Counted from the first letter of the stretch, positions 3,185 to 64,000 are shown. The stretch is DNA of 64,000 nucleotides from an uncultured bacterium (GCA_964410905.1 CAYPIR010000011.1:1813-65812), one strand, 5' to 3'. Program-made: numbers and translations. The notes: generated from the sequence alone by a model not told the origin.

Positions 3185-3213
3185 GTCCCAAAATTGTCTA
3201 GGGCAAAATTTAT

Positions 3214-8547: not shown

Positions 8548-9969
8548 ATGAAAGTAAAAGTTTCAAACGATACGAACGATTTCAAAGTAGCCGACTTATC
8601 CCTTGCCGAATGGGGACGCAAAGAAATTGATATGGCGGAAAAAGAAATGCCCGGTCTCATGGCGACAAGACGGAAATATGGTCCTAAAAAACCACTCAAA
8701 GGGTTACGGATTATGGGAAGTTTGCATATGACCATACAAACCGCCGTTCTGATTGAAACTTTGATAGAACTTGGCGCGGATGTTAGATGGTGCTCTTGTA
8801 ACATTTTTTCTACGCAAGACCATGCCGCCGCCGCCCTCGCGGTGAAAGGCATTCCTGTTTTCGCGTGGAAAGGCGAGACTTTGGAAGAATATTGGTGGTG
8901 CACGCTTCAAGCACTTAATTTCCCTGGCGGCAAAGGACCGCATCAAATAGTCGATGACGGCGGAGATTCAACGCTTTTAATTCATCTTGGGTATGAAGCG
9001 GAAAAGAATCCTAAAATTTTAAATAAAAAAACCGCGTCGCAAGATGAAGTAGAGCTCTTAAAACTTCTCAAAAAAGTTTTAAAGACTGAGCCGAAAAAAT
9101 GGCATGGCATGGTTAAAGAATGGAAAGGCGTTTCGGAAGAAACCACAACAGGTGTTCATCGCTTATATAAAATGCAAGAGGAAGGGACGCTTTTGGTTCC
9201 CGCGATAAATGTCAACGACTCTGTCACAAAATCAAAGTTTGATAATCTTTATGGTTGTCGCGAATCGCTTGCTGATGGGATTAAGCGCGCTACTGATGTA
9301 ATGATTGCAGGAAAAGTGGCAGTGATTTTAGGCTATGGAGATGTCGGCAAAGGCAGCGCTCAAGCAATGCACGGTCTTGGGGCGCGGATAGTTGTTACGG
9401 AAATTGATCCGATTTGTGCGCTTCAAGCATGTATGGCGGGTTATCAAGTCGCTCGCATAGAAGATGTTTTAACGATAGGAGATATTTTTGTAACGGCAAC
9501 AGGCAATGTCGATGTAATTACCGCCGAACATATGTCGAAAATGAAAGACGAAGCTATTGTTTGCAACATAGGGCACTTTGATAACGAAATTCAAGTATCT
9601 AAACTTGAAAGCTGGAAAGGAATAAAAAAATTAAATATAAAGCCGCAAGTCGATAAGTATATTTTTCCAGACGGGCATTCAATTATTTTGCTCGCGGGAG
9701 GACGGCTTGTTAATCTCGGATGCGCGACAGGACATCCAAGTTTTGTTATGTCGAACTCATTTACTAATCAAACGCTGGCGCAAATTGACCTCGCGCAAAG
9801 TTCTAAAAAACCCGGCGTATATCGATTAGATAAAAAATTAGACGAGGAAGTGGCGAGACTTCATCTGGATAAACTTGGCGCGAAACTCACGAAACTTACG
9901 GCTCGTCAGGCGGGCTACATTGGCGTCCCCGTTGACGGACCGTATAAACCGGAGTATTACAAATACTAA
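8548..9969 (+). CDS. ahcY: Adenosylhomocysteinase
   Basis: 473 aa. [27 protein letters not shown]-terminus, NAD-binding [12 protein letters not shown], and the conserved C-terminal PYKPEYY-Y. Confidence 0.9.
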
Positions 9970-21512: not shown

Positions 21513-21626
21513 CAAATTTGTTCATTGTCATTTCCAGTTAAATCTTTCAGAAATGACGAAGTTTCATCTAACATTTTCTGTGATTCTTTCACACAATTAA
21601 TCAAACGCGAGAGAGTATTATTGTCG

Positions 21627-42318: not shown

Positions 42319-43611
42319 GTGATTAAGCAGCAAACAATAAAAGCAAAAGTTTCGCTAGAGGGCGTTGGACTTCATACCGGAAATAAAATTAGGGTAACGC
42401 TATGCCCAGAGCCAGCCGACAGCGGCGTTTCGTTTTGTCGTGTCGATCTAGATGCGAATTTAAAAGCCTCTGCCACATTTGAAAATGTTAGAACGGATGA
42501 GCTTCGTCAAACTTCCATTATTGTTGGAAAAGGGCGAGTGAGGACGGTAGAGCATTTGATGTCGGTATTTCACGGGCTTGGGATAGATAATATAACCGTT
42601 GAGATAGACGGCGATGAAGTCCCCGGAATGGATGGAAGCGCGTTAGAGTTTGTTAAAGCCATTCAGGCGGTTGGCTTGGAGCAACAAGACGCTCCGCGTA
42701 AGTTTCTTGAAATAAAAGAAACGGTAGTTGTTGATCGCGGCGATCAATCAATAGTCATTGTGCCGGCGGCCGCTTTCTCTGTTTCTTATACTCTTAGCTA
42801 TCGCGATCCAAACCTTTTAGACCAAAATGCTACATTTGTCATAACACCGGAAATTTTTTTGAAAGAACTTGCTCCTGCTAGGACGTTTTGTCTCAAGAAA
42901 GAGGCCGAGCAACTTTTGGCTTTGGGACTTGGCAAAGGCGCTAACCCAAACAACACACTGATTTTTGAAAATAATAAACCGATAGAAACAACATTAAGAT
43001 TTGAAAATGAACCGTGTCGCCATAAAATCACAGATATTATCGGCGACCTTTTTTTATGCGGAAAATTTATCCGCGGACATGTTATCGCTTCGCGAAGCGG
43101 GCATGCTCTTAACTCTGAAATAGTGAGGAAATTAACCATGAGTGAAAATGCGCAAACTCCACAAAATAATTTAGGAACTTTGAACGTGGAGCAAATCCAA
43201 AAAATCATTCCGCATCGTTACCCGTTTCTTTTTGTCGATAGAGTTGAAAATCTCGTCCCGGGTGAACGAGCGACAGGATTTAAAAATGTAACGATGAACG
43301 ATTATTTTTTTCAAGGGCATTTCCCCGGACATCCAGTCATGCCGGGGGTCTTGATTGTTGAGGCGATGGCGCAAGTTGGCGGCGTGATTATGCTTCAAGA
43401 ACCGGAAAATGTCGGAAAAATCGCTTATTTTATGAGCGTTGATTCTGTTAAATGGCGAAAACCGGTATTGCCCGGCGATACGCTTAGAATGGAAGTTGTG
43501 GTTGTAAAAAAACGCTCGTCATTTGGACAATGCGAAGGCAAGGCCTATGTTGGCGACAAACTAGTATGCGAAGCAGATGTAAAGTTCGCAGTGGTTGATA
43601 GGGAGCAATAA
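42319..43611 (+). CDS. lpxC/fabZ: Bifunctional UDP-3-O-acyl-GlcNAc deacetylase / 3-hydroxyacyl-ACP dehydratase (LpxC-FabZ fusion)
   Basis: The N-terminal ~290 aa carry LpxC motifs (KQQTIKAKVSLEGVGLHTG.., HKITDIIGDL, GHALNSEIVRKL). The C-terminal ~145 aa are a FabZ hot-dog (IPHRYPFLFVDRV.., FFQGHFPGHPVMPGVLIVEAMAQ). Confidence 0.85.
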   Translation: MIKQQTIKAKVSLEGVGLHTGNKIRVTLCPEPADSGVSFCRVDLDANLKASATFENVRTDELRQTSIIVGKGRVRTVEHLMSVFHGLGIDNITVEIDGDEVPGMDGSALEFVKAIQAVGLEQQDAPRKFLEIKETVVVDRGDQSIVIVPAAAFSVSYTLSYRDPNLLDQNATFVITPEIFLKELAPARTFCLKKEAEQLLALGLGKGANPNNTLIFENNKPIETTLRFENEPCRHKITDIIGDLFLCGKFIRGHVIASRSGHALNSEIVRKLTMSENAQTPQNNLGTLNVEQIQKIIPHRYPFLFVDRVENLVPGERATGFKNVTMNDYFFQGHFPGHPVMPGVLIVEAMAQVGGVIMLQEPENVGKIAYFMSVDSVKWRKPVLPGDTLRMEVVVVKKRSSFGQCEGKAYVGDKLVCEADVKFAVVDREQ

Positions 43612-51073: not shown

Positions 51074-51101
51074 TAAGTTTCTTGCTTTTTAGTTTCACAA
51101 A

Positions 51102-51142
51102 AAATCCCGTTTGGGCTAGCGCTCAAGCGGGATTTTTGTTTT
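51102..51142 (+). terminator. Rho-independent terminator after the porin gene
   Basis: Arms AAATCCCG / CGGGATTT enclosing an imperfectly self-paired loop (TTGGGCTAGCGCTCAAG), followed by TTTTGTTTT. Confidence 0.55.
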
Positions 51143-51257
51143 ACTGCCAATGGGTTCCCGCCAAAAGCATTCGAGAATTGTAAAAGTCAGTAATTTTGCA
51201 GACAGACTTGTTGAGGGTTTTTTGTTTTTTTATTATCGCTGGCGAAAGCGAGACAAT

Positions 51258-51445
51258 CTAGTCATTCTGCGCAAATCGTAGCGTAGTTGCAGAATCCAGA
51301 GGAAATTAGCCTTTGGTTGCATTTGTAGAGCAACCACCCGATACGCACGATTAAAGAAATCGTGTCGGATCTTGTAGATCCTGCGACGTTAAAAAGCAAC
51401 CCGCAGGATGATCGAGTATCAAAATCTGTCTACGAGTTATTTGGC
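51258..51445 (+). repeat. Degenerate copy of the dispersed repeat/small-ORF family (frameshifted, in-frame stop) in the leader of the giant gene
   Basis: Blocks GTCATTCTGCGCA (51261-73), TTGCAGAATCCA (51287-98) and CCTGCGACGTTAAAAAGCAAC (51380-51400) match 14342-54, 14368-79 and 14400-21. The encoded peptides SFCANRSVVAESRGN* and DPATLKSNPQDDRVSKSVYEL match SFCTKHSGIAESIGD and EPATLKNNEQDDFRIKSVHEL, but lie in two different frames. Confidence 0.5.
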
Positions 51446-51606
51446 ATGTACAAGAAGGGCAAAGCTTAGTCTACTAATAATCGATAAAAATCTATTTTGG
51501 GCAGATTATTAGTAAATAATCAATTAAAAATTATATTTTTTTCATTTCGCGAGCGATAAATTTAAACATTATTTTTAATGAACCCGTTTCGCGAGAGGAG
51601 AAAAAT

Positions 51607-54600
51607 ATGAAAAAAACATTTTTATTTATAAGGTTAATAGCCGGACTTACCGCTCTAATTTTCTCTTCTGAACAAATAATTTTGGCAAACGGTTCGCTGC
51701 CGTCTTCCGTTTATACTATTTCTAGCAAATCTCCTACTGTTGATTCGACACAAGAGTTGTCTGCAACATTTAACTCGCAAATAAATGACGCAACGACAGA
51801 TTTTTTTGTGACACAAAACTCTCCATTATCAATGTCCGACACTCCGCAAAATGTTTATGGTGAAAACGGAGAGCTGCGGACAGAATCTTTAATCAACAGC
51901 AAAACAATACACCACGTTTATCAAGGCGAGTCCATTCAAAACGCAATAGAAGGAGCGAAGGCGGGAGATACGATTTTTATTCACGTCGGAATTTACAAAG
52001 AGAACTTAGAACTCAAAAATGGAGTTTCAATAAAAGGAGAAGATGCAAACGCGACAATCTTGAACGGTGAAAACAAAACAGGAACACAAATTATACGCGC
52101 GCTTGGCAACAATAGAATTGAAGACATAACCGTTACGGGCGGAGGCGCGTATTCTGGAACGCCTTCAAGCGCTATCAAAGTGGATGGCGACAAGGTTCAA
52201 ATACGAAACAGCATTTTTTCTGACAATAAAGATTACGGGATTTTTGCGGCCTTTGATGGCCACCTGTTAATAGAAGGAAATATTTTTATAAATACACATA
52301 TTGGAGTGCAGCTCCCAAAAGATAAAACACAAATCCGTTATAACACTTTTTACGAATGCGATATCGGCGTAAATGTTTTAAACGGGACAACGCCCGAGAT
52401 TGCGAACAATATTTTTTATGGCAGCAAGAATTCGTCAATTTATGAATTTAATTGGGCAAGTTACGCAAAAGGCGAGGCGAGCCGCGGATTTTTAACGGCA
52501 ATAAATAATACTTTTTGGGCTAACAAAGAAAAACCGAGCGCTTACGGCAGCGCGATGCCTTTTATGGTTGAGCAACAGGCTGAAGGAAATATAAAAGAAA
52601 ACCCGCAATTTTTTGATGCCAGCAACGGAGACTTTAGAAATTTGGAGAGAGAGCGTGGAGCGATTTTGCCGGAAGCGTTAAAAAGGGCGCTTACTCGCGC
52701 GAGTTTGTTTTCTTATGAGGTGAAGATAGAAAATATTTTGGATGAAGGCGCTGTAACCGGATACAAAACGCTTTATAACGACGGCTCGATAGAGAAGTTT
52801 TACAATGACGGACGAGACATTTTGGATACTACGCCGCCGGAGATAAATATAGCCGATGAAATTTGGACGAATCAAACGAGCGGGGAAATTACATATGAAG
52901 TTGATGGCGTTTTGCGAACTCTGGCATTTGAATTTTTTGGGGAGACGGCAAGCATTACTATAGAAGAAACGGATATTTTGGGAAATAAAGCGGCTAAGAC
53001 GATTTTGCTAAAACAAGATTTGATTTTGCCTACGGGAACATTACAGATTGAAAATTTTGTCGGGAAAGCAAATACGCGAGAAGCAGTTATTACAGTCAAC
53101 GCTCAAGACAACGCGGCGCTTAAAGATTTAAGGTTTTCGGCAGACGGAGGAATAACTTGGACGGAATGGACAAGCTGCGGAGTAAAAAAAGGTTTGGATA
53201 TAAATATAGATACGACAGAAATTTTATGTCAGCTGCGAGATCGCGCGGGGAATATAACAACTCTTAGCGCTAACATTCTGAAAGGCGATTTTGCATCGAC
53301 AATCAATTTTATTTCGTCAAATATAACGAATGATGAAAACTATATTTTGCGTTACACAATAGACGGCGAACTTCACGAAGAACATTGGAAATTGAACAGC
53401 GGAGAAAATCGTTTAATTGTTTCTATCGCGCAAGGCGGCTTGGCTGAATATGCCGATTTTGTTGTAACACTCAATGCACCAAGCGATTCGTTTAAAGATA
53501 TACCGCAACCGCTCGGAACAATTCCTAACGACTTAATTTCATACACCGCCGAAGACGGCTCGCTTGTCAGTTACTCGCAAGGGAAACTTTTTTCTATAGA
53601 AATGACGGGTGATTATTGCTTTTATTCGCCGGAGTTTGATGATGACGGAGAACTTGTAAATGGAATAGTTGAATTCGCGAACGGCAGCAGGATTTGTTAT
53701 GAAAATGGGAATGTTATAAGACGTATTGATTCCGATGGCGCGAAGTCCATTTATGACGGCGATAATCATATTGTCAAAAAAATATCTGAAAACGGCGAAG
53801 AAGTTTCTTTTGCGTATAGATTTGACGAGGCGGAAAATGTGTCGGGAATTTTATCTACGAGTAATGGAGCGAGTAATTTTTATGACGAAAATGGTGAAGC
53901 AGTTTGGATAAAAAGGGCGGATAACTCCGAGTGGTTTTATCAAAACGGGCGACCGTATATTTATCAAGATTCATTCGGAAATAAATATAAATATGAAACG
54001 GCGGTTAGCAGAGACGGAATGGACATAACAGGATTTAAAACAAGTCTTACTTATGTTTTGCCGAGCGGACAAGAAACTTGGATTTTGTATTCTGATGTCG
54101 CGGCAAGTTATGACGAATTTGCCGAGATAAAAAATGTTTTTAACGCCGGGCTTCCTAAGGAAATAACTTATGAGTCCGGTGGCGAAGTAAAAGAAATCGT
54201 CTCAACTTCCGGAGCTTTGGTCAATCTTGAAAATGGAATGCTTACTGGTGTTGATGCCGGAGGAAACCAAACTTATACATTTGACGTTGACCGCTTGGGA
54301 AATAATGAAAACTATTTTGTAGTAACGCAAGACGGCGGAGATTTTTCTCAAAAATTTAATGAGAGAGGTGAATTGATAGAAATACAAATGGCGGGCGGAG
54401 AGTCTCTGAAAATTAAGGAATTAAAACTTGACCAAATAATTTTTGAGAATGGGGAATTTTTAAGCGACCTCACGCGGGATGAAAATAACCTTATCGGATT
54501 TGTTTACAATCATTTAGACGGAAGCCGTGATTTTTATCAAGACGGGAAAATAATTAAGCGTGAAGATGCGGACGGTGTTATAACGCGATATGTGTCAGAT

Positions 54601-57600
54601 GCTGCGGCGGCGTTTCCTGAAAGCGTTCTGCTTCCGGACGGCAGAGAATATATTTTAAGCGAGACTATAAATTTAAACGGTGAAATTGAACGGCTTATGA
54701 CGCTTGCGTCTGTTTCGCTTGCGGGAGGTGAACAACTGCAATTCCAAAACGGGAACGCGGCTTGGCTTTCCGCTGTAAAAATAATTTCTTTGAATCCGCA
54801 AGATATTCCAAGTCTTTTGGACAATCAATTCTTTGTCCCTTCAATCAAACTTACAAAAGCTGAACTAAAAAATTTAACAGTTGATGAAAATGGGGATATT
54901 TTTTCCGGCGAAATTTTATTTAGCGACGGGACGCAGTTTTTTATTGAGGAAGGAAAAATTATAAAACAAGCAACGGCGGACGGACATTTAATAGAGCTTG
55001 AAAACACCGCTTTAGAAAATACTCAGCAACAAAAAGAAATATTGGCTGAACCGCTTACGGCGAAAGAATTAGAGTTTCGCAATCAAATTATTGACGCGCA
55101 GCTTGATTATTTTACAGACGGAATTGGAATAGACGCGGCAACGGGTTTGCCGGTCGATTCTTTCGCGATTTCTGCAGGTGAACAGTCGACTTATTCACAA
55201 TCCACGCTCGTTGGGTTTTGGGCAGAAATACTCGCGGCAATCGCCAGAGGAGATTTTCCCACTCAAAAATTATCTCAAGACGAGGCTTTTTCAAAACTAA
55301 ATCAATTGCTTCAAACTTACAAGGAAGCGCAGCGGGACGCGGGCTGGAAAGGAATATTGTCGTTTTTTTCTCGCGGGACAGCCACGAAAGAAATTTTGGA
55401 TGAAGAAACCAATGAGCCGACAGGCGAAATTATTACGACTTATTATTGGAAAAATGAATTTGATCAAGCAGGGCTTGGAGACGCGCTTAATCTCGCGATG
55501 AGTCTCGCGAGCGTTATTGGCGCGTTCGGAAATTTTGATGTCGCGCCGGAGTTTAATAATCAAAAAGATCAGATTTTATCAACCGCACGCGAAATTTTGT
55601 TGGCGCAGGAAGAAGGCTTCTCGGCATTTTACGATGCGGAAAACGACAGATTCTATGGTTCCGTAAAGCTCAATCAAGCGACAGGGAAGTGGGAATTTGA
55701 AAATTATGTGATGGACAGAGTTTTCAATGAGTTTAGATCGGGGCTTATTTATCTTGCCACGAAATATCCACAATACGCTAGCTCCGTTAAAAAATTAGAA
55801 GTGGCGCGGAGTGAATATGAACTTCAAAACGGAGAAAAAATTAATATTGCTCTTACCTATGACGGCGGTGCGTTTCAGATGTTTTGGCCGCTCATTCACG
55901 TGGATGAAACAAAATATCCTCAATTTGATGTCGCGATAAAAAACTTTTTATACGCGCAAGCAGACTTTGCCGCCCACGAAAACATCGCGGGTCTTTTATC
56001 CGCCGGAGCAAATGCTCTTTCCGAATATGAAAGTAAATCAGGGGTTCAAAATACGGCTGAAACCGATGAACGGCTTTTTTCGGATGCCGGTTCGCTTTAC
56101 GGAACCGCGGCTGCGTTCGGCGCGGCTCCGCATTACACGCTTCAATTCCTTAAAAATCTCATAGAGCAATTTCCAGAAATAATGACTTCAGCCGGCTTTG
56201 TGGATTCAATCGGGTTTAAAACCGTATTAAACGAAGATGAACAAACCGGCGAAATTTTTGAGACAACAGAGACGGTGTTTTCTGATAGCTTTTTCGGAGT
56301 AAACCAAGCCGCATTTTTGCTTTCACTTTTAAAAATAGGGCAAACATATTTTAGTAATTATTTGAAAAATGAAGGATTGGAAACGGAGTTTGATACTTTG
56401 TATCAATCTTTCAAATGGGATCTGTCGCCGGTTACTGAAAGCAATTCTACGCCGCCTTTTGGCACGGAGCCGGCAGATTTGCTTTATCAAGGCGATAGCG
56501 AATTTCCGGACGGCAAATTATCGGGGTTAGTTAAACAGCCTTCTTTTATCGCTTCTATTCAAGACACTGATCTTGGTAAAGGGAAAGTCTATAACTATTT
56601 AACGAATGACGGAAGTTTTCATCACTCGGAAATAGAGTTTGGCTCCGACAAAAACATTCTAAAAATGAATTTACAAGAATATTTTTTATCACCGTCGCAT
56701 TCCGGAGTTGCTACATCCATTTTGGACGGGATAGATTTGAATATACTTGATTCATCTATACAAAAAGGAGTTTTTTATACGCCGGGAAATGGCGCCGCCG
56801 GACTTGTTGTGGCAAACGATTCAAAAATCGGAGCGGTAACCAGAATGCCTTTCGATTTTAAAAATGTGGAATATCCCGTCGGCATTTGGGCGAATTTTAA
56901 TGAACGGGATTTTTCCGGTTATGACTTTTTCTCCGTCCCTGTCCGAGTTGATTCCGCGAATGCCGGAAAAGTTAGATTGAAATTCGAGTTCAAAGGAATG
57001 GGCGAAATTTTTATCTCGGATTTTCTCGATACCGATTGGAATTATTTATCACTGCCTATTCCAAAATCCTTTAGCAATTTATCGCAGCTTGCGATTTCTA
57101 TTCAAACGCTTGATGGGGAAGCCGCTTCCGGCGATGTGCTTTTAGGCCCAATATCTGCAATAAAAATTAGAACATCTAACGATATTAATTGGCAAGTGCT
57201 TTTGGGGAAAACTGAATCAGAAATTAAAAATCTTGTATTGCGGGCACTCGTAGAAAATAAAGAACCTGAAACGCAAATAGAGGCGCGTGATATTTTGCGT
57301 AATTTTTCTTTGGACGATAACGGAAGAGTTGTAAACGGTATTTTGGAACTTGCGACGGGCGATAAACAGTATTTTCAAAACGGGCGACTCGTGAAATGGA
57401 TTTTTGCAGATGGGAAAACGATCCTTTTTGAAAATGGGCTTGCAAGTTTTATATTGGATTTGTCGCGCGGCAAGCTTGAGACGGGCAGGTTTTATTACGA
57501 GAGAAATTTCAAAGGAGATATACAGTCTTTTGTTTTGCGCGACAATGATTCTGAACGCGTATTTTCTTTGTCGGGAGAAATGGTTTCTTATTTTAGAGAA

Positions 57601-60600
57601 GGAGTCCGCGCGTTTTATGAAAACGGAGAGATGAAATTCATAAAAACTTCCACGGCGGAATTGAACGATTTAGAGTTTTCTTCTGAAGGAGAACTTTTGA
57701 GCGCTCGCGTTACGCTTTCTGACGGACGCGAATTCGATTTGGATAAGGAGGGAGTTCAAACTCTTTATCTTGATAACGGGGCGACGGTTTTTGTTAAAGA
57801 CGGAAGGACCATAGCGATTGAAACACCACAAAATGGCAGAATTAATCTTACGTATAGGCTGGACGCGCTTGGGCGAATGTTCGGCGTTGATGTTTCGTTT
57901 TTTGAAACAGTTCAAGGTGAAGAAATTTTGAGAGAAATGGATTTGTTTGATTATCTTAATTTGGCGGGAAGAGAAATCGAACGAAACATAATTTTTGACG
58001 AAGCGGTTTGCGTTTTGGATTCTGCCATTGCCGGAGGTTTTAGCGTTGGTCAGCTTAAGCAAGGAGAAATTACCACGGCCGTGAAAAATTCTAGCTCAAA
58101 TGAAGTTGCTTACACTTATAGGTACGCGGAGGCAAGCGGAACAACCTTGGGAGCGGTTGTTAAGCCTACCAGAGAAAATACTCGTTTTGAAGATTATGAT
58201 TTTTTCACATTAAACGTTAGAGAAAATCCAAATTTTTTAGGTGCGGATAACTTTTACCTAAAACTTAAAACCACGAATATGCAGACGCGGTTTTCTGGAG
58301 ATATTCAGGGCGTTAGTGTTGATGAAAAACTTTTTGGATTTTCTTTGCAAGGGATAACGGGCGATTTTGGAGAAATGACATTAGAAGTCATACGCGATGA
58401 AAACTTTATTGGACAAACGCAAGGCGTTTATTTAAACGATATTAAGTTTCTTAATTTGAGGAAATTTGATGAAATTCTCGAAATGCAAATTGGGGCGGAC
58501 GCGGAAATTTTTCAAAGGCTTAAAACGAAAGGAGATAAACTTGTTTTCATAGGAGAAAAAATAGCGGCGTATTCGCCATTTGTGCTTGATGGTGCGGTTG
58601 AGTTTTTAAATATGCCGACTCAAATGACTTACAAAGGAACGAAAGCGGATTTGGGACGCGTGGAAGCGTTTGAGCGTTTCGATGGAAGCAGAGTAGAGCT
58701 AAATGAACAAAATGAAGTTTCCCGCGTAATTCTCTCGGATGGAAGCGTTCATGAATTTGAAGTGTCGGGAAATTTTACCGTAGGACATATTTCCGGCATT
58801 GACCAAGCGGCCGGTACAACTAATGAACTTAGCTATAGATACGGAATGCTAAAAAAAATTATTAGCGCGGACGGGAGGGAAATTAATTTGTCGTATGAAT
58901 ACGACTCGGACGGAAAAAAGATAACAGTTTTTACGGACGCGGCGAGCGGCGAGGAGCAAAAGTTTAAAGACGGAAAAATCATATCAACCGATGCCTCAAC
59001 GGATTTGAAAACGCAATATGAGTATGTTAACGGAGTTTTGAGCGGCGCGCGGCTTACTTATAACGGAAGAACGCTTAGTGAGACTCAATATGAATTTGCC
59101 GGTGATGAAACGCGGATTACGGACGAAGAAGGAACAATATGGTTTTATGACGCGGCGGGAGAACTCACAAAACATATTACGACAGGCGGGTTTTTGTATG
59201 AATATTCTGGGCATACGCAAGAAGCCGAAGACGGCGGTGAAATCTCTGATGACTATAAGAAGGAACTTTATGAGAGTGAAAATCTTCGGGAAGTTAGGCT
59301 TAACGGATATGAAGCAAAAGACGGTTCGTGGATTAAATATGATTTTTCAAATGGCGCGGAAATACGTCTCGCTTCAGGCATTCAAGCGTTCAATGTGGAA
59401 TTTGACAGTGAACAAAAAATGAAAAGCGGTCAGCTGCTTTTCCCCGATGAAATGATTCTTGAAATAGAAAATTATGTTCCTGTCCGCGGCAGACTCCCAA
59501 GCGGAGAGATTTTTGATTGTGAAATTCCGCTGGGTGAGTCGTATGAATTAATTCAAGACGAGAAGGGAAACTATGATGGATTTTCTATCGCCCAAGACGG
59601 CATTAAATGGACTTATAACGCATTTGGAGAATTGATTAAGACGGAATCTGAAGACGGCGAGACTAATACTTTTACTTATGTCCGAAACGCCTCAGGCGAA
59701 ATTACGGATGTTATTAGGAAAGAACGCAAGCAAGCGGACTTTAACGGCGTGCCGTTTCCTAAGGAAATAATTTTAGAAACGACCGGCGGGCAGAGGCTTT
59801 TTGACACGGGTGAATTGGCGGCATCGCACGATGGAGATGGTTTTTTAGCCGCGATTTATAAGGAAGCGACAAATCAATGGGAAGTTTATACGGGAACATT
59901 TAACTCTGAGGCGAACCGCGCTGGACTTAATTATTTTTTATCAAGCATAAAGACGGGCGAGTATTTTGTAATGGCGGTGTCTGACCCGAATTTTTATAAG
60001 GCAGATGAGGAGACAAAAAGTTTACTGGAGGGTTTGGGCGCGGGAAATGTCCGCGAAATCGCTTCGCAAAATATGTCTTGGAGTTTTATAGGCAACGAAA
60101 GTTTGTCTATTGGTGAAGGCATAGAATCCGTAAAAAAACTTTCTAGCACTTACGAAACCACGGTTACTGAGAAAATCATAACTAGCCAAAAGTTTTTGTT
60201 TTATAAAAAAACTACATATAAATATGTAACTTACACAAAGCAAGTTCCCGCTGAATTTCTTGAAGCGGATGAATTGTCCACGATTACCGAAAGTATTCAC
60301 GAGGAATTAATAGATGTGGAAGCAAAATCCAGTTGGGAAGGCGGACAAATGTTTTTAAATATGCTTTCCGCGGTTCATCGAGCCTATTCCGATTTTCTTA
60401 TTCAAAGCGAAAGTTTAAAGATAGCAAGCGACTTGCAAATTCTTGTTGTTTATAACGAAAAAAATGAAATGGTTTTTTCCCGCCGCATGGACGGGATAAG
60501 TTCTTTTTATGAAAATGGAAATGTCCGCGAAACTTTTTCCGCAGAAGGCGAGCTTTTAAGCGTTCACGAATATGAACAAAACTCGGACGGCGAATGGATT

Positions 60601-63600
60601 GTGAGCAAAATTACGCTTGTAAAAGTCAGACAAGATTTTGAAGAAGAGTCCGCGAGACTTCTCAATCAAATAGAACAGGCAAAATATGACGCGCTTCTTC
60701 AACTGGTTTGGCAGGACGATGTCGCCAGACTTGAAATAAATGAAAATGTTACGGCGGGGCTTGCGGCGTATGACGCGCATATCGCGTATTTAAACAGTCA
60801 ACTATTTAGAACGGTAAAACAATGCAAAAAAATAGTTTTTGTTACGCATTGTGAAAAGCATACCTATGAAGTCCCAGGCGTTCGAGAAATGATTTATACC
60901 GCGCAAAACGAACGAAGAAATTTGCTCGTAACGGGCGAGGAAGAACTCGCGAAAATTCCCGGCGCGATTGCTGACAAAAAAATAGAAATTGAGCAGGCAA
61001 CGCTTGAGAAAATCACGGAGCTTGAGACGCAAAAACAAGAATTTCTTTTAGATATTTTGCGCAAGGAAATGGAACCCGTAATCACGGATATTTATCGCCG
61101 CGTTTTAGGACGCGATGTTTCTAAAGAAGAATTTGAAGAATGGATTTTGCGTTATAAAGAAACGGGGGCAGTAAATGTGGAGGAAGTTTATCAAACTCTG
61201 AATGATTCTGATGAAAAGATAGTTAAGCAAAATCAAAAAAATATGATTATCCGCTCGGTCCGTGATTTCTTGGAAGATTATCTCGAGGCTGACGCGGCGG
61301 AACGTGAAACTCTTTTGGAAGAATTGAATCTTACAAAAGATGAGACGGTTGCGCTTGATAGCGAAGAAGTAGATTTGATTTTGGGATGGCTTAATACGCG
61401 TGATTTGCACTTTGGACAATCGGCGTTTTTATCATTACAGGAAATGCTGGCCTCGGAAGGTGTGGAAACATCGCTTGAAACGCTTGGAATACAGACAATC
61501 CTTATTGATATTTTGACAGGCGTTATTCACAGATTTTCCGCGGGCGAGCTTGTCATTTCAATGTTCGCGCTTGAGCGGACCGCGCAAATTTACGCTAAAC
61601 AATTCGCTGTCGTCCGCTATGACTTTCAAGACCTTTTGGATTTGTATAAAGAAGCTTGTCCGGATCAAGAAACGGAATGCGGATTTCGTGTTATCGCCCA
61701 TATTGCCGGCGATCACTTTGTTGTGATTAAACGCGTAACGGAAACCGAAGTTGTAATGGTTGAAACAAACAAGGGCGAGGACGGAGAAGTGTCTATCGCG
61801 CGACGTGATGAGTTTATGAAACGCTGGTTAGACGGCGAAGGCTCGGGACATTTGCTTGTGTCCGATTCAAAGGCCGTTCAGACAAAAAAATTAACAAATG
61901 AGCAATCAAGAAAAATACGCGGAGCGTTTTTCCCTCTTATTATTGTATGGGCGTTTTGGGCATCGGTAGCGCTTAGCGTCGCGAGCGTGATTGTCGCGCC
62001 ATTTAGTCCAACGTTTGGAAAAATATTAGGTTATGCCGCGCTTGTCGCAAGCGTTATCAGCATTGTTGCAAGCGTGGGGAATTTTATAGTTCAAGGCGTA
62101 AAATCAATATTTACTCAAATCGCGGCTAACGGAATCATTTCTACCCTTAAGGCTGGGATTTCGCAAATAGGAGGCATTATTGTTTCAGGCGTTAAAGCGG
62201 TCGGGCGATTTTTTTCTAACGCGTGGACATTTACAAAAGATGCTTTTACGGGCGGACTTAAGGCTCTCGGCTCCGGGTTAATGAAAATCAAAAATTATGC
62301 GGCGGCAAATGTAGGAGGACTTGCCACCAAAGAAGGCTTGTTGAAGGCAATATCCAATAATTTAGTTTTGGCGTCAATCAATTGGAATGTTTCAAACGGC
62401 TTAGAGATTTTAGGCTTAGATTCACGACTGACTAGAATTATTTCTAGCGCTGTCGGCGCTGCTTATGGCGGCGCTATGGGAGTTGGCTTAAGCGTAAATA
62501 CGACGCAAGAGGCGATGGCGGAATTTTGGAAGTCGGGCATATCGGCGTTCGCGCTGCAGGGCGTAAACGAAATCTCGCGGCATTTAGATTTGCCGCCTCC
62601 GCTTCTGTCTATAGTAGAAACCGTGGGCAGTGTCACGTTGGAATTTTTTAACACGGAATTAACTTTAGACGAAGGCTTTAAAAAAATATTACCAGACGTC
62701 GTGAATGGTGCAACCGCCTGGGGCATAGACTTCTTAGGAGAATCTCTCGAACTTGATTCTCGCATTACAAAACTTCTTGGGCTTTCTGTTACATCGCTTG
62801 CAGGCGGGCTTGTGGCGGATTATCTAAATCCGAAACGGGATATATCGTTTGACTTAGATTCGATTTGGGAGCGCGTAAAAGACGCATTTCTTTCAAAAGA
62901 AAGTCTCGGCGGGACGCTTTCCATCTCGGCTGAAGTCGTTATTGATAAATTTGAGCTTGATGAGTCTTTGTGGAAGTCGGGAGTTGCCCGCATTGTGGCG
63001 GGAATGTTTAATGATTTTTTAAGCGATACGCCGGCGAAATTTGACTTTATAAAAAGCATTGGCAAATCTGTGGACGAATCCATTGATGACTTTTTGAACA
63101 AAGACAACCTGGTCAATCTTTTAGAAGCAATAGATAAATTGGGATTTTCCGAGGGAATAGAAAAATACGCGACATTTCTATTTACACAAGGAGCTTTGCA
63201 GGAAATGACCAAGGGCGGTGAAACTATAGCGTATTTAATTGAGCATGGAATTTTCCGCAACGCGAGTTTCTGGATTGACGGCAAATTGAAAAATGTGTTG
63301 ATGGTGGAAGCTAATGGAAAAACTGTAATGATTACTTATGAAGCTCATGGAGATAAAAAAACCATAACGGGAATTTATGAAGAAAATGAAGACGGTTCGT
63401 ATCAGTATGTTTCTTGGGAAGTAGATGAAAATGGAGAAATTACGAATATTAAGGTCATTAAAAAGGACAGTTCCGGCGGAATAAAAACCGAAGAAGATTT
63501 AAAAACAGGAAATTTCAAAATTACTTTCGAGGATTTTAACGGTAATGAATATGGCGAAATTTTCTATGATAAAGAATCGGGCAAAATTGGATTTTCAAAT

Positions 63601-64000
63601 CAGGACGCGGGAATTACTTCGAGTCTTAACGCCGGCGGGAAAATCGAAATCGATTTTGCTATTCTGCCGGACATGGAGGACATAAAAGGATTTCTTGAAA
63701 ACTACAATCAAAATATGACCAAAGATTCCGCCGCTCAAATTGTGGCATTTTCTGTCGGGCAAGGATTTTGGAATTCGCTTGGAAGTTATGACCAAGTTTC
63801 GGATTTGATGTCGCATTTTAGGCAAGCGGTTAAAGAAGATAAAATAAAATTTGGGGCGGCGGGAATTGTTTTGTTTGATGAAAATGGAAATATCGCTTAT
63901 GACAAAAACGGTGAAGTTTTGACTACGGCCGCGCTTCCTGTAACGCTTTATGAGGAGACAACTCTTTTCGGGAATTCTATAAGATGGATCGCGGAAACTT
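51607..64000 (+). CDS. Giant secreted multidomain protein (>4130 aa, 3' end beyond window): signal peptide, parallel beta-helix, YD-repeat block 1, (alpha/alpha)6 glucoamylase-like domain, YD-repeat block 2, C39-like peptidase-like module, glycine-zipper TM segment
   Basis: ATG 51607 sits 7 nt after GAGAGGAG. Frame 1 stays open to the window end: no stop seen on manual codon reading, and the ORF track lists no frame-1 ORFs after 51093. Signal peptide MKKTFLFIRLIAGLTALIFS. PbH1-like repeats (NGVSIKGEDANATILNGEN..ITVTGG..IRNSIFSDNKDYGIF..IEGNIFINTHIGV.., ~51920-52460). YD repeats (FYDENGEAVWIKRADNSEWFYQNGRPYIYQD; SYRYGMLKKIISADGREINLSYEYDSDGKKITVF; FYDAAGELTK). Alpha-helical domain at ~55150-56350 (GFWAEILAAIARGDF, YDGGAFQMFWPLIHVDE, AAFGAAPHYTLQFLKN). 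C39-like block ..QEML.SEG.. to ECGFRVIAHIAGDHFVVIKRV (~61400-61880). Hydrophobic glycine-zipper helices (FFPLIIVWAFWASVALSVASVIVAP, GAAYGGAMGVGLSV; ~61905-62560). Confidence 0.8.
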   Translation, partial: MKKTFLFIRLIAGLTALIFSSEQIILANGSLPSSVYTISSKSPTVDSTQELSATFNSQINDATTDFFVTQNSPLSMSDTPQNVYGENGELRTESLINSKTIHHVYQGESIQNAIEGAKAGDTIFIHVGIYKENLELKNGVSIKGEDANATILNGENKTGTQIIRALGNNRIEDITVTGGGAYSGTPSSAIKVDGDKVQIRNSIFSDNKDYGIFAAFDGHLLIEGNIFINTHIGVQLPKDKTQIRYNTFYECDIGVNVLNGTTPEIANNIFYGSKNSSIYEFNWASYAKGEASRGFLTAINNTFWANKEKPSAYGSAMPFMVEQQAEGNIKENPQFFDASNGDFRNLERERGAILPEALKRALTRASLFSYEVKIENILDEGAVTGYKTLYNDGSIEKFYNDGRDILDTTPPEINIADEIWTNQTSGEITYEVDGVLRTLAFEFFGETASITIEETDILGNKAAKTILLKQDLILPTGTLQIENFVGKANTREAVITVNAQDNAALKDLRFSADGGITWTEWTSCGVKKGLDINIDTTEILCQLRDRAGNITTLSANILKGDFASTINFISSNITNDENYILRYTIDGELHEEHWKLNSGENRLIVSIAQGGLAEYADFVVTLNAPSDSFKDIPQPLGTIPNDLISYTAEDGSLVSYSQGKLFSIEMTGDYCFYSPEFDDDGELVNGIVEFANGSRICYENGNVIRRIDSDGAKSIYDGDNHIVKKISENGEEVSFAYRFDEAENVSGILSTSNGASNFYDENGEAVWIKRADNSEWFYQNGRPYIYQDSFGNKYKYETAVSRDGMDITGFKTSLTYVLPSGQETWILYSDVAASYDEFAEIKNVFNAGLPKEITYESGGEVKEIVSTSGALVNLENGMLTGVDAGGNQTYTFDVDRLGNNENYFVVTQDGGDFSQKFNERGELIEIQMAGGESLKIKELKLDQIIFENGEFLSDLTRDENNLIGFVYNHLDGSRDFYQDGKIIKREDADGVITRYVSDAAAAFPESVLLPDGREYILSETINLNGEIERLMTLASVSLAGGEQLQFQNGNAAWLSAVKIISLNPQDIPSLLDNQFFVPSIKLTKAELKNLTVDENGDIFSGEILFSDGTQFFIEEGKIIKQATADGHLIELENTALENTQQQKEILAEPLTAKELEFRNQIIDAQLDYFTDGIGIDAATGLPVDSFAISAGEQSTYSQSTLVGFWAEILAAIARGDFPTQKLSQDEAFSKLNQLLQTYKEAQRDAGWKGILSFFSRGTATKEILDEETNEPTGEIITTYYWKNEFDQAGLGDALNLAMSLASVIGAFGNFDVAPEFNNQKDQILSTAREILLAQEEGFSAFYDAENDRFYGSVKLNQATGKWEFENYVMDRVFNEFRSGLIYLATKYPQYASSVKKLEVARSEYELQNGEKINIALTYDGGAFQMFWPLIHVDETKYPQFDVAIKNFLYAQADFAAHENIAGLLSAGANALSEYESKSGVQNTAETDERLFSDAGSLYGTAAAFGAAPHYTLQFLKNLIEQFPEIMTSAGFVDSIGFKTVLNEDEQTGEIFETTETVFSDSFFGVNQAAFLLSLLKIGQTYFSNYLKNEGLETEFDTLYQSFKWDLSPVTESNSTPPFGTEPADLLYQGDSEFPDGKLSGLVKQPSFIASIQDTDLGKGKVYNYLTNDGSFHHSEIEFGSDKNILKMNLQEYFLSPSHSGVATSILDGIDLNILDSSIQKGVFYTPGNGAAGLVVANDSKIGAVTRMPFDFKNVEYPVGIWANFNERDFSGYDFFSVPVRVDSANAGKVRLKFEFKGMGEIFISDFLDTDWNYLSLPIPKSFSNLSQLAISIQTLDGEAASGDVLLGPISAIKIRTSNDINWQVLLGKTESEIKNLVLRALVENKEPETQIEARDILRNFSLDDNGRVVNGILELATGDKQYFQNGRLVKWIFADGKTILFENGLASFILDLSRGKLETGRFYYERNFKGDIQSFVLRDNDSERVFSLSGEMVSYFREGVRAFYENGEMKFIKTSTAELNDLEFSSEGELLSARVTLSDGREFDLDKEGVQTLYLDNGATVFVKDGRTIAIETPQNGRINLTYRLDALGRMFGVDVSFFETVQGEEILREMDLFDYLNLAGREIERNIIFDEAVCVLDSAIAGGFSVGQLKQGEITTAVKNSSSNEVAYTYRYAEASGTTLGAVVKPTRENTRFEDYDFFTLNVRENPNFLGADNFYLKLKTTNMQTRFSGDIQGVSVDEKLFGFSLQGITGDFGEMTLEVIRDENFIGQTQGVYLNDIKFLNLRKFDEILEMQIGADAEIFQRLKTKGDKLVFIGEKIAAYSPFVLDGAVEFLNMPTQMTYKGTKADLGRVEAFERFDGSRVELNEQNEVSRVILSDGSVHEFEVSGNFTVGHISGIDQAAGTTNELSYRYGMLKKIISADGREINLSYEYDSDGKKITVFTDAASGEEQKFKDGKIISTDASTDLKTQYEYVNGVLSGARLTYNGRTLSETQYEFAGDETRITDEEGTIWFYDAAGELTKHITTGGFLYEYSGHTQEAEDGGEISDDYKKELYESENLREVRLNGYEAKDGSWIKYDFSNGAEIRLASGIQAFNVEFDSEQKMKSGQLLFPDEMILEIENYVPVRGRLPSGEIFDCEIPLGESYELIQDEKGNYDGFSIAQDGIKWTYNAFGELIKTESEDGETNTFTYVRNASGEITDVIRKERKQADFNGVPFPKEIILETTGGQRLFDTGELAASHDGDGFLAAIYKEATNQWEVYTGTFNSEANRAGLNYFLSSIKTGEYFVMAVSDPNFYKADEETKSLLEGLGAGNVREIASQNMSWSFIGNESLSIGEGIESVKKLSSTYETTVTEKIITSQKFLFYKKTTYKYVTYTKQVPAEFLEADELSTITESIHEELIDVEAKSSWEGGQMFLNMLSAVHRAYSDFLIQSESLKIASDLQILVVYNEKNEMVFSRRMDGISSFYENGNVRETFSAEGELLSVHEYEQNSDGEWIVSKITLVKVRQDFEEESARLLNQIEQAKYDALLQLVWQDDVARLEINENVTAGLAAYDAHIAYLNSQLFRTVKQCKKIVFVTHCEKHTYEVPGVREMIYTAQNERRNLLVTGEEELAKIPGAIADKKIEIEQATLEKITELETQKQEFLLDILRKEMEPVITDIYRRVLGRDVSKEEFEEWILRYKETGAVNVEEVYQTLNDSDEKIVKQNQKNMIIRSVRDFLEDYLEADAAERETLLEELNLTKDETVALDSEEVDLILGWLNTRDLHFGQSAFLSLQEMLASEGVETSLETLGIQTILIDILTGVIHRFSAGELVISMFALERTAQIYAKQFAVVRYDFQDLLDLYKEACPDQETECGFRVIAHIAGDHFVVIKRVTETEVVMVETNKGEDGEVSIARRDEFMKRWLDGEGSGHLLVSDSKAVQTKKLTNEQSRKIRGAFFPLIIVWAFWASVALSVASVIVAPFSPTFGKILGYAALVASVISIVASVGNFIVQGVKSIFTQIAANGIISTLKAGISQIGGIIVSGVKAVGRFFSNAWTFTKDAFTGGLKALGSGLMKIKNYAAANVGGLATKEGLLKAISNNLVLASINWNVSNGLEILGLDSRLTRIISSAVGAAYGGAMGVGLSVNTTQEAMAEFWKSGISAFALQGVNEISRHLDLPPPLLSIVETVGSVTLEFFNTELTLDEGFKKILPDVVNGATAWGIDFLGESLELDSRITKLLGLSVTSLAGGLVADYLNPKRDISFDLDSIWERVKDAFLSKESLGGTLSISAEVVIDKFELDESLWKSGVARIVAGMFNDFLSDTPAKFDFIKSIGKSVDESIDDFLNKDNLVNLLEAIDKLGFSEGIEKYATFLFTQGALQEMTKGGETIAYLIEHGIFRNASFWIDGKLKNVLMVEANGKTVMITYEAHGDKKTITGIYEENEDGSYQYVSWEVDENGEITNIKVIKKDSSGGIKTEEDLKTGNFKITFEDFNGNEYGEIFYDKESGKIGFSNQDAGITSSLNAGGKIEIDFAILPDMEDIKGFLENYNQNMTKDSAAQIVAFSVGQGFWNSLGSYDQVSDLMSHFRQAVKEDKIKFGAAGIVLFDENGNIAYDKNGEVLTTAALPVTLYEETTLFGNSIRWIAET

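Follow-up and report, generated by a model that had tools for sequence, protein, structure and literature searches.

A candidate polymorphic toxin-like effector family of giant proteins in uncultured Omnitrophota

What kind of protein is encoded by a reading frame that runs on until the available sequence ends? The DNA analyzed here, a stretch of 64,000 nucleotides from an uncultured bacterium (the window), closes within such a frame on the + strand. As an earlier note made from the sequence alone had stated, the frame is uninterrupted from ATG 51607, with no stop over 4,131 codons (51607-63999). This ATG is the first start codon past the nearest in-frame stop on the 5' side (51517-51519), and a Shine-Dalgarno-like sequence, GAGAGGAG (51593..51600), lies 6 nt upstream of it. 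The upstream neighbour encodes an OmpL-like porin (PF07642, E 1e-66) and is followed by a terminator-like hairpin with a T-run (51100..51137; 17-bp stem with 7 GC pairs), which sets the giant gene apart as its own transcription unit. The earlier note had advised obtaining the full ORF, and the NCBI protein P0006 (4,334 aa, from a 66,821-bp contig) supplies it, being 100% identical across all 4,131 residues encoded in the window. The gene therefore terminates just 203 codons beyond the window, and 51607..64000 contains codons 1-4131 of 4,334.

With ~6% stops among random codons at 41% GC, we calculate that 4,131 codons would stay free of stops by chance with a probability of ~e^-260. The GC content of the giant ORF (0.41) is close to that of the remainder of the window (0.42); this native composition, together with widespread orthologues, ruled out a horizontally acquired island. 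A search for long internal DNA repeats in the ORF found none, ruling out the collapsed-repeat assembly about which the earlier note had been concerned, and more than 12 independent MAGs and metagenomes contain collinear ORFs of comparable length, each matching over 3,000-4,180 residues in a single BLASTP alignment. An artefact (chimeric assembly, several genes fused through sequencing error, or a decaying pseudogene) has almost no probability, for although the homologous region is broken by in-frame stops in two relatives (L011/L004 and L014) and short-read Logan contigs end just 5' of the giant gene, this reading is opposed by the stop-free length, the native GC, the lack of internal repeats, the identical full-length protein already recorded at NCBI and the uninterrupted collinear ~4,300-aa ORFs of numerous independent assemblies, among which those of L016 (4,329 aa) and L028 (4,343 aa) are complete. 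We conclude that the giant ORF is a genuine gene for a 4,334-aa exported protein of an uncultured member of the Omnitrophota, of which the window holds the first 95%.

The protein consists of a trunk (aa 1 to ~3750) and an exchangeable C-terminal module of ~585 aa. The trunk comprises a signal peptide, a beta-helix, two YD blocks, a glycoside-hydrolase (GH) domain, an ILEI-like domain and a coiled coil, and continues with a C39-fold domain, a leader-like motif, a membrane hairpin and a glycine-rich region. The Sec-type signal peptide (aa 1-27, 51607..51687) was recognized from the sequence (MKK, a hydrophobic core, and ILA followed by NG) and its hydropathy peak, and the N-terminus aligns with those of the orthologues L016, L006, L008, L009 and L028. 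A right-handed parallel beta-helix follows at aa ~105-345 (51919..52641; Pfam Beta_helix E 9.9e-19, NosD 4.4e-8; NCBIfam NosD family 1.5e-11). YD/Rhs-type beta-hairpin repeats (RHS_repeat PF05593 E 9.4e-14, TIGR01643 1.5e-7) occupy two blocks. In block 1 (aa ~640-1135, 53524..55011), recognized by RHS_repeat, profile A6 and an iterative HMM, the HMM placed repeats at aa 701-731, 755-781, 976-995 and 1106-1130, and profile A6 matched Rhs 7q97 (E 4.9e-5), teneurin 8fia (1.5e-3) and Tse5 (0.02) in the PDB. In block 2 (aa ~1895-2720, 57289..59766), RHS_repeat matched at aa 2498-2528 and the HMM at aa 1920-1938, 2497-2533 and 2664-2689. This block is interrupted at aa ~2130-2340 by an inserted domain with no assigned fold, and its profile A7 (aa 1880-2740) returned nothing significant from the PDB. 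The Sec signal, the beta-helix and both YD blocks had been proposed in the earlier note, and all were borne out.

YD repeats are the signature of Rhs, Tc (TcB-TcC) and teneurin proteins, and the giant protein resembles these in having such repeats recognized by Pfam and profile searches. It might accordingly be a canonical Rhs/Tc-type cocoon toxin, in which a closed YD shell surrounds a C-terminal toxin that is released by the Rhs aspartyl autoprotease core. The RHS_repeat and PDB matches given above would fit such a shell, and Rhs, RHS2 and teneurin shells are found among the structural neighbours of the beta-meander. However, the DPxG motif of the Rhs core is absent throughout the full 4,334 aa, and the protein is therefore not a canonical Rhs toxin. 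Searches of Pfam and NCBIfam gave no match to the T6SS or Tc adaptor domains PAAR, VgrG, SpvB and TcdB/TcB. Moreover, the repeats are sparse (~10 detectable by the iterative HMM), degenerate and broken up by large globular domains, and the tail lies ~1,000 residues past the last YD block, with the coiled coil, the C39-like domain, the TM hairpin and the Gly-rich region in between. A cocoon is thus very improbable.

Between the YD blocks lies an (alpha/alpha)6 GH domain of the SGL clan (GH-S; aa ~1150-1600, 55054..56406). A profile of 14 sequences (A2) matched 8xuj_A, the GH192 beta-1,2-glucanase EeSGL1, with E 1.4e-20 over ~370 residues. PF10091 was found in 12 of 14 orthologues (best 5e-7), the window sequence alone reaching just E 0.07. 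These matches upheld the earlier guess of a 'glucoamylase-like/DUF3131' (alpha/alpha)6 fold. In EeSGL1 the general acid is E221 and the candidate base D149, and Group 4 of clan GH-S is inactive (PMC12102758). The putative catalytic residues E1375 (DRVFNEFR) and D1292 (GDALNL), both invariant in the 14 sequences of A2, align with E221 and D149, respectively (note that the PDB chain numbering is shifted by 1 from that of PMC12102758). With both catalytic acids intact, the domain appears to be an active glycoside hydrolase and a candidate beta-1,2-glucanase-like enzyme of clan GH-S. Its relation to EeSGL1 is a distant one at the profile level, and here the domain forms part of a chain of 4,334 aa. 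The GH domain is the most conserved stretch of the giant protein in a conservation profile, and is missing in the more distant family members L021, L023, L024 and L025.

Directly after the GH domain, a conserved beta-rich domain (aa ~1600-1890, 56404..57276; alignment A4, 62% mean column identity) gave no PDB or Pfam match. Its homology to the beta-domain at aa 2130-2345 was rejected (hhalign probability 2%). Beyond block 2 follows an ILEI/FAM3-like domain (aa ~2735-2850, 59809..60156; Pfam ILEI E 6e-8), whose profile A5 matches FAM3C 5lc3 (E 5e-3) and FAM3A (6e-3); a fold of this type serves glycan binding in POMGnT1. The next region, aa ~3000-3250 (60604..61356; alignment A3), is conserved and alpha-helical/coiled-coil, with a YRRxLGRD motif. 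Its likeness to DUF4214 is a weak assignment, resting on weak coiled-coil matches and on a DUF4214 match (E 0.19) in just one member out of 17, and a profile of aa 3000-3440 found nothing significant in the PDB.

Next comes a papain-like domain of C39 fold (aa ~3255-3425, 61369..61881; AF2 model, pLDDT 74). The best Foldseek matches of the model are the peptidase domains of PCAT1, LahT150 and ComA (7n87, 6mpz, 3k8u; best E 7e-5, probability ~1.0, TM ~0.5). Pfam C39 (PF03412) matched 14 of 17 orthologues at a sub-threshold E of 3e-4, scoring 21.0 bits against a gathering cut-off of 22 and covering only profile positions 46-121. The Cys-His-Asp triad of C39 peptidases is incomplete: S3272 (HFGQSAF) occupies the Cys position, H3370 is retained and the acid at His+16 is E3386, all three being invariant in 21 of 21 homologues. 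The spacing of the acid is that of LahT (Cys27/His101/Asp117), in which it likewise stands 16 residues after the His. The lack of the catalytic Cys and the sub-threshold Pfam score suggest that this may be a non-catalytic binding domain, as is the C39-like domain of HlyB. Thus, of the C39-like peptidase module proposed earlier the fold stands, but the nucleophile is Ser rather than Cys.

Immediately 5' of the first transmembrane helix we found a double-glycine-leader-like motif, LTNEQSRKIRGA (aa 3429-3440, 61891..61926), which is kept in 21 of 21 homologues. The family consensus is L-S-D-x-E-A-x-x-I-R-G-A/FF, where the slash marks a putative processing site (A3440/F3441 in this protein), and the pattern [LIM][ST]Dx[EQ][AS]xx[IV][RK]G[AS]/F occurs in cis in all 21. 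The published leader consensus is Leu(-12)-X3-Glu(-8)-Leu(-7), with a hydrophobic residue at -4 and GG, GA or GS at the end (PMC6363468); the window's own motif has Glu at -9 rather than -8. The arrangement is reminiscent of PCAT/AMS transporters in its substrate-like motif, L(-12)...E(-8)...I(-4)-x-G-A, and in a C39-fold domain placed directly before TM helices. In contrast to those systems, the nucleophile here is Ser and the acid Glu, the Pfam score lies below the gathering threshold, the 'leader' is in cis and C-terminal to the domain, and there is no ABC transporter.

The transmembrane helical hairpin itself (aa 3445-3463 and 3477-3495; 61939..62091) has Kyte-Doolittle peaks of 2.3 and 2.2, the sole peaks of such height in the protein besides the signal peptide, and the sequence FSPTxGKILGYAAL is invariant in the alignment of this region. 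The last part of the trunk is a Gly/Ala/Ser-rich amphipathic region (aa ~3496-3745, 62092..62841), recognized by its composition, GxxxG-type zippers and alignments, which closes with the conserved motif LGxSLxLDxRITxLLGL. Hydropathy and composition are in agreement with the glycine-zipper hydrophobic helices described in the earlier note.

The behaviour of the protein beyond this point became apparent from its relatives. We compared 39 loci, 22 from genomes (nearly all Candidatus Omnitrophota/Omnitrophica) and 17 from metagenomes. More than 12 of them contain ORFs of ~4,300 aa that are collinear with the giant protein at 36-48% identity, and homology breaks off abruptly at aa ~3750. Clustering of the last 250 aa yielded at least 7 unrelated tail types, and among the relatives the clusters of the next ORF match the tail clusters almost one to one (the window ends before its own downstream gene). 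Even the nearest trunk neighbours carry different tails (L013/L014, 95% identical; L033/L035, 80%; L007/L028, 76%); between L013 and L014, identity drops from at least 90% to ~15-25% at window aa ~3745-3758. The complete collinear orthologue L028 bears a YiiX/C92-like tail (P0004 matches C92, E 4e-7). A Planctomycetia locus (L025), with a trunk of 22% identity, has its tail and downstream ORF in common with the Omnitrophota loci L023 and L031, and this tail type pairs with a small partner without a signal peptide. The partners of envelope-type tails, in contrast, bear signal peptides and are TPR or PD40 propeller proteins (the latter at E 1.6e-25) of 180-360 aa; the TPR partners have an N-terminal half common to different tail subtypes. 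Note that 15 of 29 typed loci carry tails of one broad Ser/His class, so that part of the 'polymorphism' reflects divergence and not replacement. Word-indexed protein searches with shorter queries returned just 4 matches and 1 match.

As judged from these comparisons, the tail and the next gene are exchanged jointly between close relatives, which is the logic of polymorphic toxin/immunity systems and a hallmark of bacterial contact weapons. The suggestion of a polymorphic toxin in the earlier note is thereby strengthened by tail clusters, paired next genes and a trunk breakpoint in close relatives. Its description of the locus as the only clearly accessory gene fits the tail alone, since the trunk has native GC and is conserved across Omnitrophota.

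In the window, the variable module starts at aa ~3750 (aa ~3750-4131 of ~3750-4334; 62854..63999, + strand). It is built of a helical linker, a beta-hairpin meander and, from aa ~4040, a Ser/His hydrolase-like domain, the first third of which lies in the window; S4174, the predicted nucleophile, and H4264 are encoded past the window's end. This Ser and His are invariant both in a 12-sequence alignment and in one of 30 diverse sequences, and a model of poor confidence (pLDDT 55) places the predicted nucleophile in a strand-SHSG-helix elbow. Searches of Pfam, NCBIfam and the PDB, including those with profiles of the 12 and the 30 sequences, gave no sequence match for the tail domain. In each of the 177 representative proteins matched, this domain stands at the C-terminus. 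The tail of the giant protein itself is probably a Ser/His hydrolase of alpha/beta-hydrolase (lipase/esterase-like) fold. The earlier note had seen neither Rhs core nor toxin tip in the window and had put the informative C-terminus downstream; the absence of the core holds even at full length, but the variable tip begins within the window, at nt ~62,850.

On balance, we think it reasonably probable that the giant protein belongs to a family of polymorphic toxin-like effectors that had not been described before and is largely confined to Omnitrophota. In the delivery mechanism that we infer, the protein would be exported via Sec, and its long YD/beta-helix body, with glycan-binding and glycan-cutting domains, would act on the envelope of a neighbouring cell (prey, host or rival). 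The C39-like domain would cleave, or at least bind, its own ...I-R-G-A/F-F site, cleavage splitting the body from the membrane-inserting hairpin. The hairpin would then take the C-terminal enzyme, here probably an alpha/beta-hydrolase, into or across the target membrane, while the product of the co-varying next gene, a TPR protein with signal peptide in the case of this tail type, would shield the producer or handle the tail in the periplasm. Within the window we see no route by which the protein could cross the producer's outer membrane. At 180-360 aa, the TPR and PD40 partners are bigger than expected of immunity proteins, which speaks against a toxin, and the common N-terminal half of the TPR partners would also suit a role in assembly or as a chaperone.

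Such partners, typical periplasmic scaffolds, point to an alternative that we consider unlikely, namely that the protein is a self-anchored surface enzyme for attack or adhesion, held in the producer's own inner membrane by the hairpin after Sec export, and not a delivered toxin. The 3,400-aa body would reach outward as an arm for adhesion and polysaccharide degradation (beta-helix, YD shaft, SGL glycosidase and ILEI lectin), the tail hydrolase a second envelope-degrading or self-remodelling enzyme, and the TPR or PD40 protein a periplasmic assembly partner. An N-terminal signal combined with two, an even number of, TM helices would place body and tail both outside the cytoplasm, and the glycosidase is the most conserved part, as this alternative would have it. 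Published giant Omnitrophota proteins have likewise been read as membrane-anchored coats that degrade target-cell surfaces (PMC10066038; passages of bioRxiv 10.1101/2023.11.21.568195). What a self-anchored enzyme fails to predict is that tail and next gene are abruptly replaced where trunks share 76-95% identity, that the tail type of L023, L025 and L031 pairs with a small partner without signal peptide, and that one tail-plus-partner cassette recurs on a trunk from Planctomycetia.

The polymorphic effector reading can be taken further, to a claim that we regard as speculative and rather improbable. The protein would then be a self-contained delivery machine of ultrasmall predators or parasites, in which self-cleavage by a Ser-His-Glu C39 domain frees a hairpin/glycine-zipper module carrying exchangeable envelope-degrading enzymes, independently of T5, T6 or T7 secretion, and the trunk glycosidase digests beta-1,2-glucans. 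These are periplasmic/osmoregulated glucans of Gram-negative cells, and their digestion would serve to breach the target or to feed on it. Omnitrophota have been described as likely predators or parasites that use very large surface proteins (PMC10066038), a framework also found in passages of bioRxiv 10.1101/2023.11.21.568195.

Comparison with known systems places the family closest in logic to polymorphic toxins such as CdiA-CT/CdiI and Rhs-CT/RhsI (Zhang, Aravind et al. 2012, PMC3482391). Shared features are a large conserved N-terminal body with YD repeats and a Sec-type signal, which fits the 'T2SS/Sec' class of PMC3482391; abrupt switching of close relatives to unrelated C-terminal enzymatic domains, with the cognate gene directly 3'; a papain-fold domain 5' of the tail, in the position of 'releasing peptidases'; and candidate tails of alpha/beta-hydrolase and NlpC/P60 type, both known toxin classes. 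In contrast, the giant protein has none of the described pre-toxin or demarcation elements, such as VENN, DPxGL, HINT and ZU5, and its junction comes after a TM hairpin and Gly-rich region. Its candidate releasing peptidase is a Ser-for-Cys C39 fold beside a cis double-glycine-like site, its trunk bears an apparently active glycoside hydrolase, its partners are secreted TPR/PD40 proteins of 180-360 aa instead of small cytoplasmic immunity proteins, and its host phylum is Omnitrophota.

Giant Omnitrophota proteins of at least 10,000 aa are known as 'Archaeovorin' and dockerin types (passages of West-Roberts et al. 2023 preprint; 10.64898/2026.06.07.730766). According to these passages they have in common with our family the phylum, a signal peptide, TM anchors, C39 domains, Rhs-like antiparallel beta structure, carbohydrate-active domains and a proposed role at the target-cell surface. 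However, at 4.3 kaa the present protein is below their size classes, and it lacks the dockerin, TSP3 and SecA-like Pfam families that the passages list. Membership of the published classes of at least 10 kaa was therefore rejected on size and domains as given there. The passages on these proteins contain neither a swappable tail with cognate gene nor an SGL-clan domain.

We found no sequence homology to large clostridial toxins or MARTX. These toxins offer an analogy, in that one giant polypeptide combines an autoprocessing papain-like/cysteine-protease-type domain, a membrane-insertion region and effector enzymes; it is an analogy alone, as domain order, targets and organisms all differ.

In conclusion, Omnitrophota are abundant, uncultured and ultrasmall, are suspected predators or parasites of microbes, and have had no effector system defined so far. 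The giant family is a first candidate for one, consisting of a conserved ~3,750-aa delivery body, an enzymatic tip that is exchanged and a partner gene to match. NCBI lists the protein without a name, and word-indexed protein searches barely detect the family. The family connects cell-cell conflict with an SGL-clan (beta-1,2-glucanase-like) domain, with an enzymology that can be tested, and sets a papain/C39 fold with an invariant Ser beside its own leader-like site. The tail families, at least 7, and their partners are candidate new toxin/immunity domains, Pfam covering none of them except the YiiX/C92-like tails and, on the partner side, the TPR and PD40 proteins. If the self-contained delivery machine were true, it would constitute a new principle of toxin delivery and the first effector repertoire of the Omnitrophota.

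The giant gene is open without interruption for more than 12.4 kb, as the earlier note had read it: translation from the ATG at 51607 to the window end gave 4,131 codons and zero stops. The closest in-frame stop on the 5' side lies at 51517, ATG 51607 is the earliest start codon thereafter, and GAGAGGAG directly precedes it. Since ~6% of random codons are stops at 41% GC, such a run is not explicable by chance. A profile search for the full-length protein among 1.84 billion representative proteins recovered P0006 (4,334 aa), a nameless NCBI entry on a 66,821-bp contig, with 100% identity to all 4,131 window residues. Thus, the window is short of the final 203 codons only, and the complete ORF that the note wanted to see is available. 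As for its concern about collapsed repeats, no long direct DNA repeats were found within the ORF, and its GC content is that of the remaining window.

The neighbouring genes are housekeeping genes of a diderm, encoding DnaB, BamA, OmpH, an LpxC-FabZ fusion, LpxA, LpxI, a sigma-54 activator, a type III glutamine synthetase and an OmpL-like porin, with UvrA, FtsH and others more distant. The fusion (42319-43611, + strand) combines PF03331 and PF07977 in a single 430-aa ORF followed by LpxA and LpxI, a lipid-A-making set that confirms the diderm envelope. Pfam searches at E<=1e-5 left three + strand ORFs of this otherwise housekeeping region without a match (21525-23543, 23543-28276 and 33884-35269; 672, 1,577 and 461 aa); the stop codon of the first and the start codon of the second overlap. 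The upstream porin gene is followed by a strong terminator-like hairpin (51100-51137, + strand), indicating that the giant gene stands by itself, preceded by a leader of 470 nt. The intergenic region (51074-51606, 533 nt) contained no match to a sigma-70-like promoter. Three short-read Logan contigs with an identical porin gene (L001-L003) all end 175-186 nt past the porin stop, so that assemblies from short reads consistently stop just short of the giant gene.

Related loci were found in 22 cases in a scan of GTDB genomes, nearly all titled Candidatus Omnitrophota or Omnitrophica, and in 17 further cases in metagenomes. The GTDB loci share at most 44% identity with the window protein in the query region, so the window comes from an under-sampled Omnitrophota lineage. 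Samples rich in this lineage include SRR11845623 and SRR27197510. Many relatives (L005-L009, L012, L015-L020, L022, L028, L031, L033, L034 and L036) are collinear with it over 3,000-4,180 residues at 36-48% identity, each in a single BLASTP alignment. With complete orthologues among them (L016, 4,329 aa; L028, 4,343 aa), an uninterrupted frame of ~13 kb is the normal state of the gene. In-frame stops within the homologous region occur in two relatives, L011 (= L004; nt 70-72 and 6907-6909) and L014 (nt ~8558-8560), with same-frame homology on both sides; they may reflect pseudogenisation or decay, sequencing error or a split into several genes.

The conserved trunk begins with a Sec-type signal (aa 1-27) and a right-handed beta-helix (aa ~105-345; Beta_helix E 1e-18, NosD 4e-8). 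A first block of YD-type repeats (aa ~640-1135) matches Pfam RHS_repeat and, as a profile, Rhs 7q97 (E 5e-5), teneurin (1.5e-3) and Tse5 (0.02). The most conserved stretch (50-60% identity) is a glycoside-hydrolase domain at aa ~1150-1600. Its profile, built from 14 sequences, matched PDB entry 8XUJ at E 1.4e-20, and PF10091 ('putative glucoamylase') matches 12 of the 14 orthologues. 8XUJ is EeSGL1, a clan GH-S beta-1,2-glucanase of family GH192 that is built on an (alpha/alpha)6 barrel (PMC12102758). The catalytic residues E221 and D149 of EeSGL1 align with E1375 (DRVFNEFR) and D1292 (GDALNL), both invariant in the family. This SGL-clan domain is wholly absent from the distant members L021, L023, L024 and L025, L021 skipping from the equivalent of aa ~1149 to ~1651; the trunk is thus itself modular. 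A conserved beta-rich domain (aa ~1600-1890), for which searches returned no match, precedes a second YD block with an inserted unknown domain (aa ~1895-2720).

Further along the trunk are an ILEI-like domain (aa ~2735-2850; Pfam ILEI/FAM3 6e-8, FAM3C 5e-3), a conserved helical/coiled-coil region (aa ~3000-3250) and a C39-like domain (aa ~3255-3425) with the papain-like peptidase fold. In Foldseek, the model of this domain (pLDDT 74) falls among C39 peptidase domains, those of PCAT1, LahT and ComA; Pfam C39 is just below threshold, yet matches 14 of 17 orthologues. It is followed by a transmembrane hairpin (aa 3445-3463 and 3477-3495), whose helices are the only strongly hydrophobic ones besides the signal peptide, and by a Gly/Ala/Ser-rich amphipathic region reaching from the hairpin to ~3745. 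The modules that the earlier note had read from the sequence alone, namely signal and beta-helix, two YD blocks, a glucoamylase-like (alpha/alpha)6 domain, a C39-like peptidase module and hydrophobic glycine-zipper helices, are borne out by these analyses.

The C39-like unit carries Ser at the position of the catalytic Cys (HFGQSAF) in 21 of 21 homologues. The His (DHFVV) is retained, and the residue at His+16 is Glu, again in all 21. LahT likewise has an acid at His+16 (triad Cys27/His101/Asp117; PMC6363468). About 50 residues past this Glu and abutting the first transmembrane helix, every one of the 21 homologues contains the motif [LIM]-[ST]-D-x-[EQ]-[AS]-x-x-[IV]-[RK]-G-[AS]|F-[FW]. As published, a double-glycine leader terminates in GG, GA or GS and features Leu(-12), Glu(-8), Leu(-7) and a hydrophobic residue at -4 (PMC6363468), so the motif resembles a substrate in cis. 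Judged from sequence, it looks like a putative cis substrate that the Ser variant would either cleave or merely bind.

Many relatives that are otherwise collinear with the window protein lose homology to it at aa ~3740-3880. For the 29 loci whose ends are complete, the last 250 residues fell into nine tail clusters: a broad Ser/His class (15 loci, the window's type among them), a YiiX/C92-like class (L028, L039 and L042; related to P0004, Peptidase_C92 match 4e-7), L023/L025/L031, L033/L037/L041, L034/L035, and the singletons L013, L030, L027 and L043. The partner, defined as the ORF starting at or overlapping the giant-gene stop codon, partitions nearly identically. Ser/His tails are accompanied by signal-peptide TPR proteins of 180-320 aa, C92-like tails by signal-peptide PD40 beta-propeller proteins (E 1.6e-25), and L033/L037 and L034/L035 by separate secreted partners of ~200-220 aa; the L023/L025/L031 partner (121-141 aa) is without signal peptide. 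At a distance of a few hundred nt 3' of the tail/partner cassette, several loci have ORFs that begin MPRK(K/R)R..SPTGIYHW (L015, 13544-14131; L019, 14429-15037; two copies in L025, 15026-15613 and 16872-17459); presumably they resemble the N-termini of IS200/RayT-type transposases.

Trunk kinship does not set the tail type among the loci compared. At 76% identity, L007 has a Ser/His tail and L028 a C92-like one; L033 and L035 are 80% identical. L013 and L014, tandem paralogues on a single contig (ASOC01000009.1) of a Candidatus Omnitrophus fodinae SAG, agree at 95% identity over the C39-TM region, but their tails are unrelated and their downstream genes differ. Identity between them falls from at least 90% to ~20% in ~15 residues (window aa 3745-3758), immediately after a conserved LGxSLGLDxRITxLLGLP motif. 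The Planctomycetia locus L025, with a trunk 22% identical, shares its tail-plus-partner with Omnitrophota L023 and L031. At the genome level, polymorphic toxin systems are defined by such patterns of tails and partners (PMC3482391).

In the window protein, the tail (aa ~3750-4334) runs through a helical linker and a meander of beta-hairpins into a terminal domain of ~300 aa, which begins at aa ~4040. The stop codon is predicted 609 nt beyond the window, with a ~280-aa signal-peptide TPR gene of the L005/L016 type expected to overlap it or to start shortly after it. This domain is invariably C-terminal in 177 matching representative proteins, many of 2-4.8 kaa, and has no match in Pfam, NCBIfam or PDB sequences. 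In sets of 12 and of 30 diverse sequences, the invariant positions are NG (or a related motif) following the first strand, [HYF]-S-G, one Gly and one His. In a low-confidence model of the homologue P0001, the Ser sits in a strand-Ser-helix elbow. The tail is probably an alpha/beta-hydrolase (lipase/esterase-like) effector. The invariant Ser and His (S4174 and H4264) lie past the window end, where the earlier note had placed a toxin tip; the variable tail itself already starts inside the window.

The genomic features of polymorphic toxin systems that we tested for are found in this family, including the co-variation of tail and downstream gene. In contrast to those systems, the described pre-toxin and releasing modules are missing from the giant protein. 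On balance, we lean towards a family that operates like a polymorphic toxin. The main rival, a self-anchored surface enzyme or adhesin with the partner as an assembly factor, accounts for the topology but leaves the cassette exchange unaccounted for, and we consider it rather unlikely. A canonical Rhs toxin is ruled out by failure of the defining Rhs-core test, as DPxG is absent throughout the full-length protein and not just from the part in which the note had seen no Rhs core. Published giant Omnitrophota proteins are of at least 10 kaa, with mention of C39 domains, TM anchors and Rhs-like beta structure; in the passages covered, we found no ~4.3-kaa family, SGL-clan domain, Ser-variant C39 with a cis leader-like site, or exchangeable tails.

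The architecture, conservation, catalytic-residue patterns, topology signals and cassette-like exchange of tail plus partner are supported directly. For a toxin-like protein, Sec export would bring the 3,400-aa body outside the cytoplasm, and with two TM helices the C-terminal module would end up there as well. No secretion system for passage across the producer's outer membrane is encoded within the window. The body (beta-helix, YD sheets, ILEI-like lectin and SGL-clan glycosidase) may bind and cut envelope glycans of another cell, and the C39-like unit may process or hold the GA|FF site. Resembling the insertion elements of translocation and pore-forming domains, the hydrophobic hairpin and amphipathic Gly-rich helices could deliver the enzyme of the tail into the envelope of the target cell, and the secreted partner would shield the periplasm of the producer. 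Two combinations are consistent with this toxin logic: tails directed at the envelope (hydrolase, NlpC/P60-superfamily amidase) whose partners are secreted, and one tail type whose partner is not.
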